Assembly (NCBI GenBank): GCA_934747885.1
Contig: CAKVHE010000002.1
Coordinates: 66,447 to 130,446 of the forward strand
Direction: 5' to 3'
DNA: 64,000 nt
Source: an uncultured Clostridia bacterium
Lineage (GTDB): Bacteria; Bacillota; Clostridia; Christensenellales; UBA1242
Shown one piece after another: positions 39,351 through 41,309 of the stretch (positions are counted from its first letter, which is position 1; the number at the start of each line of letters is the position of its first letter). Position numbers and translations under genes: made by a program. The notes under the pieces are model-generated. The model had not been told where the DNA came from, did no database searches, and saw nothing but the letters and a program-made list of their open reading frames with translations.

Positions 39351-41309
39351 ATGAACAAAAGTACAAAAACAAAGTTAATTGCTACCATAATTTCTGTGGT
39401 ATGCGCAATTTCACTTTTGGCAGTTGGCGTTATGGCGTCGCTTACTAACTTTCAAGTTGCAATTGCCAACCAACTTAACTTAAAGTTTGATACGGTAGAA
39501 GGCACTCTTTATGCAACTCGTGTAGGTGATGTTGCGGGCATTGATAGAACAACTAGCAAAGTGCTAAGCGAAAGTACAACCGCAACCGACTGGTTAAAAG
39601 TGTATGACGGCACCACCACCGAAGGGGTACAAAATGACGCACTGACCAGCATACAAGAAAAGGTAGATTTTATCTCAAATGATGCGATAAAAGCAAAAGT
39701 TAATGCCGGCACAACCAGCATAGCAATAACTTACTATTTTTACTATACCTTGCCAACTAACGCAGAATCTAACGATGTCGTATTAACGGCGCCAGCAGTG
39801 GCAGATGGCAATGTTGCGGTTACTTATTCGTATGTAAAAGGCACGGGGGCAACTTTGCCGGACTTTACTAGCGGAACAGTGCTAACAAACGGAGAAACAG
39901 TACAAGTAGCCGGTGGTGAACACTTATTTATTAAAGCCGAAGCAAAAGTAGATTTGAGCAAATCAGTAAAAATAGAAAATGCGAATTGGAATTTTACTCT
40001 CAATTTTGGTATTAGCAAATATACATTAACTGGTGATACGCTGAACTTTAAAGCTGTATCTGGTGCAGAAACCTACGAAGTATGGGCAAAAGAAACCACC
40101 ACAAGTGGTGCATCACTTTTGGCGCAAACAAGCGCAGTAGGTGATACTGATGCTACTCTTGGCACATTAAAGAAAATTTTGAATAAAGATACCACAAGCC
40201 TTGATTTAAAATCGGCACTTGCTGGATTGAATAGTGGTGATTATTTGATAACGGTTTTGCCAAAGAACGCAAGTGGTGTGGAGATTACAGGCAATAGAGT
40301 TGCAACCAAATATACTTTTGAATCAACAATTACTATAACTTTTGTTTTCAAAGATTTAAATGGCTATGGCAATTACAGTTCTCAAGGGTTTAAAAAGATT
40401 GGTTCAAACGGAACAGCATTGTCTAATAATGCAATCACGGTTGAAGCCGGCCTTACTTGGAAGCAAATTGTGGCTAAATTAAGCTTGCAATTGTACTACG
40501 CTAACGACAGTTTCAGTTGGGCAAATGCTAGCGCACATTGGGTTTCGGCAACTGCAACATCAATTACATATACAAAGTCGGGCGGTACATCTCAAACTGA
40601 CCCATTGACAGAGTATTATAATGGTTTGAATATGGATGCAGTTATAAGTAGCAATACAACCATAACACTAACTTACAAGTCATGGATGTGTTTAACCTCA
40701 GAAACAGACATTCTTGTTTATGATGAAAAGAAGAAAAAATATGTAACTAAGAAAATAAAAGACATAACTTATAATGACCTTGTTGCATGTTGGGATTTTG
40801 ATAACGGCAAATTGACATACGCTAAACCGGTATGGATAAGTAAGTCGTACAAAGCGGGAAAAGTAACTCGCGTGACTTATAGTGACGGTACCGTGCTTGA
40901 TGTTTGTGGCAACCATAGTTTGCTATCTGTAGAAGATGGTGCGTTTGTACACGAAGTATCTAAATATAAACTAGGCACAACCAACTACAAAGCAAATGGT
41001 GAATTTGTAACAATTACAAAGATAGAAACCATAAACAAAACCGTAAAAACAAATTCTATTATTACCAATTATCATATGAACTGTTTTGCAAACGGCGTAT
41101 TAACTTCGGTACCATACAACAACTTGTATCCAATAAAAGATATGAAGTTTGTGAAAGACGATCGCAAGTTGCGTAAGTTTGAAGAATATGATGTTCCTCG
41201 TGAATTTTACGACGGATTTAGACTTGGTGAAGTACAATATCGTTCAATTGACACTATTAACAAGTCAATTAAAGATACGTTTATCAAACCAATGTTACCA
41301 AAAGAATAA
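39351..41309 (+). CDS. secreted surface protein, paralog 2: SipW-type signal peptide, family core, ~220-aa unique region, Hint domain and 66-aa tail
   Basis: 652 aa. The first ~225 aa are nearly identical to the 3613 and 45280 products. The C-terminus diverges and contains a Hint module starting at Cys447. Confidence 0.88.
   Translation: MNKSTKTKLIATIISVVCAISLLAVGVMASLTNFQVAIANQLNLKFDTVEGTLYATRVGDVAGIDRTTSKVLSESTTATDWLKVYDGTTTEGVQNDALTSIQEKVDFISNDAIKAKVNAGTTSIAITYYFYYTLPTNAESNDVVLTAPAVADGNVAVTYSYVKGTGATLPDFTSGTVLTNGETVQVAGGEHLFIKAEAKVDLSKSVKIENANWNFTLNFGISKYTLTGDTLNFKAVSGAETYEVWAKETTTSGASLLAQTSAVGDTDATLGTLKKILNKDTTSLDLKSALAGLNSGDYLITVLPKNASGVEITGNRVATKYTFESTITITFVFKDLNGYGNYSSQGFKKIGSNGTALSNNAITVEAGLTWKQIVAKLSLQLYYANDSFSWANASAHWVSATATSITYTKSGGTSQTDPLTEYYNGLNMDAVISSNTTITLTYKSWMCLTSETDILVYDEKKKKYVTKKIKDITYNDLVACWDFDNGKLTYAKPVWISKSYKAGKVTRVTYSDGTVLDVCGNHSLLSVEDGAFVHEVSKYKLGTTNYKANGEFVTITKIETINKTVKTNSIITNYHMNCFANGVLTSVPYNNLYPIKDMKFVKDDRKLRKFEEYDVPREFYDGFRLGEVQYRSIDTINKSIKDTFIKPMLPKE
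40689..41108 (+). other. Hint (intein/Hedgehog-like) autoprocessing domain, residues 447-586 of the 39351 CDS
   Basis: CLTSETDILV matches block A with a Cys1 nucleophile. VCGNHSLL matches the block B xxH motif. NYHMNCFANGVLTS matches blocks F/G but lacks the terminal His-Asn. The size (~140 aa) is that of a mini-intein. Confidence 0.7.

Follow-up and report, generated by a model that had tools for sequence, protein, structure and literature searches.

A Hint domain with a conserved tail at the C-terminus of a clostridial surface protein: a predicted autoprocessing cassette of gut bacteria, large phages and a giant virus

Protein splicing and the cholesterol modification of Hedgehog proteins are both driven by Hint domains, which are also widely used as protein-engineering tools. 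In many inteins and B-type bacterial intein-like (BIL) domains, N-terminal cleavage takes place with the first cysteine and the block-B histidine alone. The Hog domain is defined as a Hint domain followed by a C-terminal sterol- or adduct-recognition region (SRR or ARR; PMC2362128), and for B-type BILs N-terminal cleavage is the expected activity (PMC7765530). Here we describe a gene from an uncultured Clostridia bacterium, the product of which ends in a predicted Hint domain and a conserved tail of 66 amino acids (aa). The gene lies in a stretch of 64,000 nucleotides (positions 66,447 to 130,446 of contig CAKVHE010000002.1, assembly GCA_934747885.1), which is called the window throughout. Its layout follows that of the Hog domain, in which a variable passenger precedes a Cys-initiated Hint domain and then a C-terminal region of about 65-70 aa. 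It also recalls the B-type BILs (Hint_2), where a Hint domain is likewise found in variable secreted bacterial proteins, with the N-terminal motifs kept and the intein C-terminal motif missing. The features of the gene and its C-terminal part are as follows:

39351-41309, forward strand: whole gene, encoding a 652-aa surface-protein precursor composed of signal or anchor helix, beta-sandwich passenger, Hint domain and tail (translation of the open reading frame, ORF; orthologs with the same architecture)
40686-40691, forward strand: predicted scissile or acyl-shift junction Met446-Cys447, with Cys447 (40689-40691) as the block A nucleophile (alignment)
40689-41108, forward strand: predicted Hint fold, aa 447-586, 140 aa (hidden Markov model matches, AlphaFold2, Foldseek)
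40914-40916, forward strand: block B His522 in CGNH (His in 228/228 modules aligned at that column)
41073-41108, forward strand: blocks F/G, HMNCFANGVLTS, aa 575-586, with His575 and Asn577 (BIL2 alignment, family alignment)
41109-41306, forward strand: 66-aa tail, aa 587-652, charged, modelled as a loop with short beta-bridges and two helices (alignment; predicted local distance difference test, pLDDT, 81-92)
41115-41165, forward strand: most conserved stretch of the cassette, YNNLYPIKDMKFVKDDR, aa 589-605 (alignment of 231 modules)

Translation of 40689-41309 started exactly at Cys447 (CLTSETDILV...) and ended in ...MLPKE*; the ORF coordinates, the motifs quoted in the initial annotation (CLTSETDILV, VLDVCGNHSLL and HMNCFANGVLTS) and the 66-aa tail were all reproduced exactly on the 652-aa product. 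Pfam Intein_splicing matched the window protein at an E value of 2.7e-5 and 24.5 bits, under its cut-off of 35.8, and TIGR01445 (intein_Nterm) at 1.5e-4 and 22.7 bits, against a cut-off of 24.5, with model position 1 aligned at Cys447. A scan with Pfam Hint (PF01079) and Hint_2 (PF13403) gave no match to the window protein. A Pfam search for Hint families had been proposed at the outset. Among 23 relatives from a first word-indexed search, scanned one by one against Pfam, all matches were weak (Hint 10, Intein_splicing 8, Hom_end_hint 7, Hint_2 2, PT-HINT 2); those with a mechanistic meaning all belonged to the Hint clan, and the best E values were 0.0018 for PF01079 and 0.016 for Hint_2. As a single query against PDB sequences, the C-terminal 219 aa returned only aminotransferases, at chance level. 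Searching the same sequences with a profile of homologs gave marginal intein and BIL matches (E ~0.03), and the alignment to Tetrahymena BIL2 spanned Cys1 to ...NFFANGVLA, in block G.

As the sequence models were suggestive but sub-threshold, the Hint assignment was settled by fold search. An AlphaFold2 model of aa 434-652 reached a pLDDT of 87.4 and a predicted template modelling score (pTM) of 0.82. Of the 59 PDB matches that Foldseek returned at E ≤ 1e-3, every one was a Hint fold. The top match was Tetrahymena BUBL BIL2 (6tmm/6y75; E 3.4e-10, template modelling (TM) score 0.77-0.79, 21% identity); next came the gp41-1 intein, the BIL 2lwy of C. thermocellum, mini-inteins of DnaB, RecA and DnaE, and Hedgehog (1at0, E 1.2e-5). 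On this model, aa 447-586 are confirmed as a Hint domain, far beyond chance. The initial annotation had claimed a Hint module of mini-intein size and had named AlphaFold as a check; both the fold and the size of 140 aa were upheld, with Cys447 and His522 invariant wherever aligned. With its predicted beta-fold and Cys as first residue, the module belongs to the HINT superfamily by modelled fold and chemistry.

Conservation was counted over 231 unique homologous modules. Position 447 was Cys in 224/224 modules aligned at that column, and His522 lined up with the His of block B in BIL2 and Npu DnaE. Thr452 (97%), Thr572 (97%), His575 (96%) and Asn577 (231/231) were also conserved; the Thr position of the block-B TxxH motif was occupied by Cys519 in the window protein and by Val or Ile in most modules. 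The picture at the Hint domain's C-terminal end differed from that of an intein. The intein penultimate-His and terminal-Asn positions corresponded to Ser586 and Val587, as aligned to BIL2 (...NFFANGVLAHN), and across the 231 modules position 586 was never His and position 587 never Asn. If 588 is taken as the +1 position, following the BIL2 alignment, the residue is Pro in the window protein and Arg in 67% of modules, and the column is never nucleophile-rich. If 586 is instead taken as the last Hint residue, +1 is position 587; here the window protein has Val, 58% of modules have Cys and 74% have one of Cys, Ser and Thr. In neither register does the window protein have a +1 nucleophile. Since the terminal Asn position is never Asn and 586 is never His, splicing and canonical Asn cyclisation can be regarded as excluded for the whole family, as judged from the alignment; splicing had already been called unlikely, on the same missing His-Asn and +1 residue, before the family was aligned.

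The tail was at least as well conserved. Asn591 and Tyr593 were each present in 230/231 modules, Lys602 and Arg605 were near-invariant, and position 590 was Asn or Ser. Two motifs were recognised, [YFL]-[NS]-N-[LIVM]-Y-P-I-K-D-M-K-F-V-K-D-x-R and, further on, (I/V)P..(Y/F)(Y/F).G(L/F)RL.E. Tail and Hint core were modelled together with confidence in the AlphaFold2 prediction of aa 434-652, and the tail accompanied the Hint part in 150/150 of the best deep-search matches described below as well as in a giant-virus protein. The tail thus appears, from the alignments, to be an integral part of a portable Hint-plus-tail cassette and no protein-specific appendage; of the initial description, the layout of Hint plus a 66-aa C-terminal region stood. 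In composition the tail was 39% D/E/K/R with a grand average of hydropathy (GRAVY) of -0.90, as compared to 14% and -0.36 for the Drosophila Hedgehog SRR. Because of this strong charge, a lipid, once listed among the candidate adducts, is unlikely.

The first word-indexed search had found only 23 distant phage-type relatives, most of them unnamed proteins of ~320 aa on phage-like contigs. It missed the window protein's own cluster and orthologs, which were recovered with a full-length query only. The trimmed module (A2) was used for an exhaustive profile search which, counted in clusters at 50% identity, returned 4,271 clusters at E ≤ 1e-3; of these, 2,051 reached E ≤ 1e-10 and at least 813 reached E ≤ 1e-30. 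The module ended ≤40 aa from the C-terminus of the protein in 138 of the 150 best matches of this deep search. The passengers in front of it were mutually unrelated and ranged from none to >2,400 aa; their recognisable domains, typical of adhesins or receptor-binding proteins, included He_PIG Ig-like domains, an RCC1 propeller, an Mfa-like fimbrillin with BspA leucine-rich repeats (LRR_5), Flg_new repeats and a YadA head. On viral contigs of 37-573 kb, the cassette was carried by giant proteins of 900-2,679 aa, and a protein of Gaeavirus, a giant virus, aligned over 197 columns at 38% identity, tail included. In Clostridia, Erysipelotrichaceae and other metagenome-assembled genomes (MAGs), the cassette stood behind signal-peptide or pilin-like N-termini. 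As the alignments define it, the Hint domain with its tail is one portable C-terminal cassette on adhesin- or fibre-like passengers.

No PHROG family matched the cassette, a tblastn search of deposited phage genomes gave no match to the module, and no model in Pfam, NCBIfam or PHROG describes Hint plus tail; nor was such a description found in the profile libraries or literature searched. Sources that name a member use 'hypothetical protein'. The superfamily assignment itself is not new, as some members are auto-annotated 'Hint domain-containing' or have precomputed Pfam Hint hits. The novelty lies in recognising Hint plus tail as a large and distinct cassette, with its viral and bacterial distribution.

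A few members depart from the terminal position and could reveal the target to which the tail hands over. One 1052-aa protein (P0024) has two complete Hint-plus-tail modules in tandem; three others (P0047, P0056 and P0097) have a further conserved domain of ~140 aa after the tail; and in P0136 the module lies between a glycosyltransferase-like N-terminal half and another C-terminal domain. In the MAG that also contains locus L005, a 144-aa ORF (L016, 5315-5749) with a hydrophobic N-terminus comprises the block F/G part only and the full tail, and may represent either a fragmentary gene or a split arrangement like that of a C-fragment. On an IMG/VR contig of 171,661 bp (L033), the gene at 8001-8537 has an in-frame TAG within the module (..KLI*DITYDD..) where relatives have Glu or Gln, and for the gene at 693-1835 of L004, translation with code 11 does not give the query protein. 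These two observations suggest stop-codon reassignment in these large phage contigs.

Like the cassette, the Hog domain has no terminal His-Asn and performs cleavage or transfer instead of splicing. The end of the Hedgehog Hint domain, ...NSVAASC143YA, resembles the family consensus ...NG(V/I)LTSC(R)Y, in which the Cys falls 137-141 residues after Cys1 as compared to 143. We infer by eye only that Cys587 is the equivalent of Hedgehog C143; when the family profile was compared by hhalign and hmmsearch with Drosophila HhC and with fused Npu DnaE, the alignments covered blocks A and B only and did not extend to the C143 region. There are also clear differences. The conserved C143 at the end of the Hint domain is Val587 in the window protein and Cys in little over half of the family, the Gly before the Hog nucleophile is here not Gly (Met446 in the window protein), and PF01079 was matched only below its cut-off. 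The Hedgehog SRR is hydrophobic and sterol-binding, with motifs K/L, whereas the cassette tail is charged and has no sequence similarity to it. Finally, the Hog domain is eukaryotic and the cassette bacterial and viral.

From the B-type BILs, the cassette differs by its invariant C-terminal extension, its mostly terminal place and its abundance in phages and giant viruses, and the window protein has no match to Hint_2 PF13403 (two of the 23 relatives match weakly). BIL2 of the Tetrahymena BUBL protein is the best structural match and the only solved protein aligned by sequence through block G (NFFANGVLA), but it ends in His-Asn, sits between ubiquitin-like domains, has no homolog of the tail and performs a splicing-type conjugation. 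A-type BILs and PT-HINT domains (PF07591) likewise use a Hint fold to process secreted multidomain bacterial proteins; they end in His-Asn and are followed by a variable C-terminal toxin and an immunity gene, whereas in the cassette the variable part is N-terminal and the part after Hint is conserved. The architectural analogy with Hog and BIL proteins made in the initial annotation was thus apt, and its comparison with polymorphic toxins poor. As to canonical inteins, the terminal Asn, the +1 nucleophile and a conserved host protein were all lacking, and model cut-offs were not reached; the N-terminal flank is hypervariable, and the C-terminal flank is conserved with the Hint domain, not with the passenger. 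The self-cleaving Peptidase_S74 intramolecular chaperone of phage tail fibres and spikes offers a functional analogy only, as a conserved, removable C-terminal module on unrelated fibre or adhesin passengers of phages and bacteria; its fold and chemistry (a Ser-Lys dyad, dependent on trimerisation) are unrelated and no homology was detected. By these comparisons, the cassette fits the description of a B-type BIL and the architecture of Hog, and in sequence is a member of neither.

We consider it probable that the cassette is an autoprocessing module in which a thioester is resolved by hydrolysis, with release of the passenger. After export and folding, Cys447 would attack the Met446 carbonyl and, through an N-S acyl shift assisted by His522, form a thioester. 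As there is no terminal Asn and no +1 nucleophile, this thioester could not proceed to splicing; it would be resolved directly, most probably by water, to give two products, a ~415-aa beta-sandwich passenger with Met446 at its C-terminus and a Hint-tail fragment of 23 kDa. The invariance of the tail suggests that it completes or regulates the active site, perhaps by positioning the nucleophile, perhaps by gating cleavage until folding or assembly of the passenger is complete. Its place at the active site is proposed because it begins at the end of the last Hint strand, beside the N-terminal junction; in Hint domains, the two adjoin (PMC7765530). The cassette would then serve as a removable C-terminal maturation module for adhesin- and fibre-type proteins, whether of phages, of giant viruses or of Gram-positive bacteria. 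Established in this reading are the Hint fold, the retention of the residues for the first step, the absence of splicing residues and the cassette-like distribution.

Several points weigh against it. Cleavage is predicted, for any member of the family, from homology alone, and contact of the tail with the active site from Hint topology and pLDDT, not from measured contacts. The -1 residue (Met in the window protein) is variable across the family, with no recognisable junction motif, and the block-B Thr is missing in the window protein. In addition, four residues kept by most of the family and found together in 118/231 modules, Arg523, Asn569, Cys587 and Arg588, have been lost together in the clade of the window protein (to Ser, Ser, Val and Pro, respectively). 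Partly joint losses of the same four were seen in at least three other sub-clades; their co-variation is suggestive only, as relatedness inflates the statistics. Hedgehog C143 is essential for processing and forms an obligatory branched thioester intermediate (PMC12054796). Given this and the four lost residues, the window clade might process slowly, differently or not at all.

The strongest alternative to hydrolysis, though an unlikely one in our estimation, is transfer in the manner of Hog or BUBL, in which a non-water nucleophile positioned by the tail would attack the Cys447 thioester, so that the C-terminus of the passenger became covalently anchored or cross-linked without sortase or ATP. 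Candidate acceptors would be an amine or hydroxyl of peptidoglycan or teichoic acid, or a lysine of another protein or virion subunit. Hint followed by a conserved region of ~66 aa is the Hog architecture, where the C-terminal region selects the adduct (PMC2362128), and in the best structural match, BIL2, the thioester is resolved by a lysine epsilon-amine to give an isopeptide bond (PMC8616854). Tail residues are as invariant as the nucleophile, which a catalytic or recognition role explains better than a passive one, and covalent anchoring would suit adhesin, fibre and pilin-like passengers. Yet no acceptor can be named. The settings of the cassette differ, with phage and giant-virus proteins made in the cytoplasm and bacterial proteins exported, which argues against a compartment-specific acceptor; the charged tail, unlike the sterol-binding region of Hedgehog, disfavours a lipid; and the four neighbourhoods inspected (the window, L001, L011 and L037) held no candidate partner gene and no gene common to them.

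An extended form of the transfer idea, which we regard as slightly less likely again, would make Hint plus tail a prokaryotic and viral counterpart of Hog, that is, a ligation cassette independent of ATP and sortase. Asn591, Tyr593, Lys602 and Arg605 would recruit a specific nucleophile, for instance an amine of the cell wall or a lysine in a subunit of a virion or pilus, so that the C-terminus of the passenger would be attached covalently and not only set free, and most members would transfer via a C143-like branched thioester on Cys587, assisted by Arg523, Asn569 and Arg588.

It is more doubtful still that the module of the window clade is a retired Hint domain, non-cleaving and kept as a structural or binding C-terminal domain, for example one that binds the cell wall or a partner. 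The joint loss of Arg523, Asn569, Cys587 and Arg588 and the missing Thr of TxxH would fit such a role, and in Hedgehog the loss of the positionally similar C143 abolishes processing (PMC12054796). Against this, every member of the window clade keeps Cys447, Thr452, His522, Thr572, His575, Asn577, Asn591 and Tyr593, although its orthologs are only 46-68% identical, and the N-terminal cleavage of many inteins and B-type BILs needs only the first Cys and the block-B His.

C-terminal cleavage through cyclisation of Asn591, five residues off the canonical intein position, would free the 61 residues at the end, either by itself or in combination with N-terminal cleavage, in the manner of an A-type BIL. 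The near-invariance of Asn591 and the Asn or Ser at position 590 are in keeping with this, and A-type BILs do have a variably placed C-terminal His-Asn and cleave without ligation (PMC7765530). We nonetheless hold it to be very improbable, as no His precedes Asn591 (Tyr-Asn-Asn) and the residues that follow it, LYPIKDMKFVKDDR, show the highest conservation in the cassette and pack with the Hint core in the model, which would be surprising in a leaving group. The reading as a canonical intein, or as a polymorphic-toxin releasing Hint (PT-HINT) in which the tail is the C-extein or toxin, was rejected on residue and architecture tests and retains hardly any probability: the best weak Pfam and NCBIfam matches are intein models and 2/23 relatives weakly match PT-HINT, but the terminal Asn and +1 nucleophile are missing, no conserved host protein is interrupted by the module (conservation with Hint is found in the 'C-extein', and the 'N-extein' is hypervariable), and the tail is conserved rather than polymorphic, only 66 aa long and followed by no immunity-like gene.

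The part of the window protein that hydrolytic release would set free, and the proteins that share it, comprise the following features:

39351-39449, forward strand: basic and hydrophobic N-terminal segment, aa 1-33, putative signal peptide or membrane anchor (N-terminal homology; model helix 3-30)
39450-40688, forward strand: passenger, aa 34-446, three or four predicted beta-sandwich domains, adhesin- or pilin-like, without a Pfam family (model, fold search)
45280-46857, forward strand: paralog, 86% identical over aa 1-222, with a C-terminal DUF6273 in place of the Hint cassette (Pfam, pairwise comparison)
3613-5208, forward strand: paralog, 69% identical over aa 1-269, with a C-terminal DUF6273 (pairwise comparison)

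An AlphaFold2 model of aa 1-446 (pLDDT 78) showed a hydrophobic N-terminal helix followed by beta-sandwich domains, and a fold search with the passenger found only generic beta-sandwich, adhesin and pilin matches with low TM scores. The protein had originally been labelled as carrying a SipW signal, and that label was not supported directly: the model of SipW-cognate signal peptides did not match its N-terminus at E ≤ 10. What remains is indirect. A SipW/archaeal-type signal peptidase I domain opens a 762-aa ORF at 24553-26841, below the cut-offs of its models (TIGR02228, 42.9 vs 51.85 bits; SipW, 41.9 vs 190) and followed by ~650 aa without a Pfam match. The N-termini of both paralogs and of two small proteins beside this peptidase are homologous to that of the Hint protein; the small proteins (22823-23419 and 23515-24264) are encoded directly upstream of it and their N-termini are 28-30% identical. 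Based on the peptidase domain and this homology, a SipW-type signal on the window protein is plausible, and 22823-26841 may be a TasA/SipW-like fibre or secretion locus that serves the whole paralog family.

As the initial annotation had stated, the cassette takes the place of DUF6273 in the paralogs, which share their N-terminal 220-270 aa with the Hint protein. The full-length query recovered orthologs and paralogs of 46-68% identity with the order of passenger, Hint and tail kept, some of them with precomputed Pfam hits to PF01079 (weak) or PF07591 (PT-HINT); a scan of GTDB representatives gave a best module match at 46% identity. The N-terminal scaffold recurs in related genomes with DUF6273 or BspA-type LRR_5 as its C-terminal partner, and one protein (P0193) combines LRR_5 with the Hint cassette. 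This is a surface-protein family with swappable C-termini (DUF6273, BspA-type LRR, Hint cassette). Several of the Hint-bearing paralogs may come from one related genome with several copies. A weak tblastn match of the module at 12393-12695 of the window was dismissed as chance; the site lies in a YegS-type lipid kinase.

The surroundings of the gene in the window were as follows:

39283-39310, forward strand: promoter-like site TTGAGA-16-TATAAT (11/12 to consensus), for a monocistronic gene (consensus scan only)
41312-41340, no single strand: hairpin resembling a bidirectional intrinsic terminator, common to the gene and the convergent groEL (sequence scan)
41404-42996, reverse strand: convergent groEL (ORF list)

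The promoter-like site is preceded by the rpoC terminator (39159-39180), and no Rfam element was found in 38800-41700. The gene appears to stand by itself; a promoter-like site and a terminator of its own, together with the conservation of full-length orthologs, indicate that it is real. Downstream, the absence of an immunity-like gene and the order of terminator and convergent groEL were found as first described. A prophage origin of the gene was considered and rejected, since it is flanked by rpoBC on one side and groESL on the other and the paralog and homolog loci are likewise chromosomal, scattered among housekeeping operons; one paralog locus lies between rplM-rpsI and murG, and one MAG homolog locus between an epimerase gene and secA/rny.

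Three further observations concern other parts of the window. A Gly-Gly-Met repeat is a common C-terminal feature of bacterial GroEL; the 530-aa homolog encoded at 41404-42996 ends in ...VVVDIDENKVK, with no such repeat visible in the translation. The 1,253-aa protein encoded at 17929-21693 (reverse strand) combines a Peptidase_C1 domain of the papain family with a Flg_new (Listeria-Bacteroides) repeat and an Ig-like domain, and is likely a large secreted or surface cysteine protease. Between 58000 and 64000, GC content drops from ~0.40 to 0.32-0.345, and the genes include a fusion of a GT2 glycosyltransferase with a GtrA-like membrane domain, a 630-aa protein without a Pfam match and an AMP-binding enzyme; the region may be a horizontally acquired island for modification of the cell envelope.

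The cassette represents a large, uncharacterised branch of the Hint superfamily that is common to surface proteins of gut Clostridia, proteins encoded on very large phage contigs and a protein of a giant virus. It should be of relevance to intein and Hedgehog specialists and to phage biologists; fold and residues are read from sequence and model, mechanism and activity are predicted by homology, and a new principle would follow only if the transfer model holds. The existence of variants with and without the Hedgehog-C143-like Cys would bear on how the Hedgehog and intein mechanisms diverged and, were the cassette truly a ligation device, it would bear on the evolutionary source of Hedgehog autoprocessing. 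For annotation, the cassette explains one arm of a polymorphic surface-protein family that swaps its C-termini. If active, it would provide a natural set of self-cleaving C-terminal tags and a general route for the maturation, and possibly the covalent anchoring, of adhesins and virion fibres.

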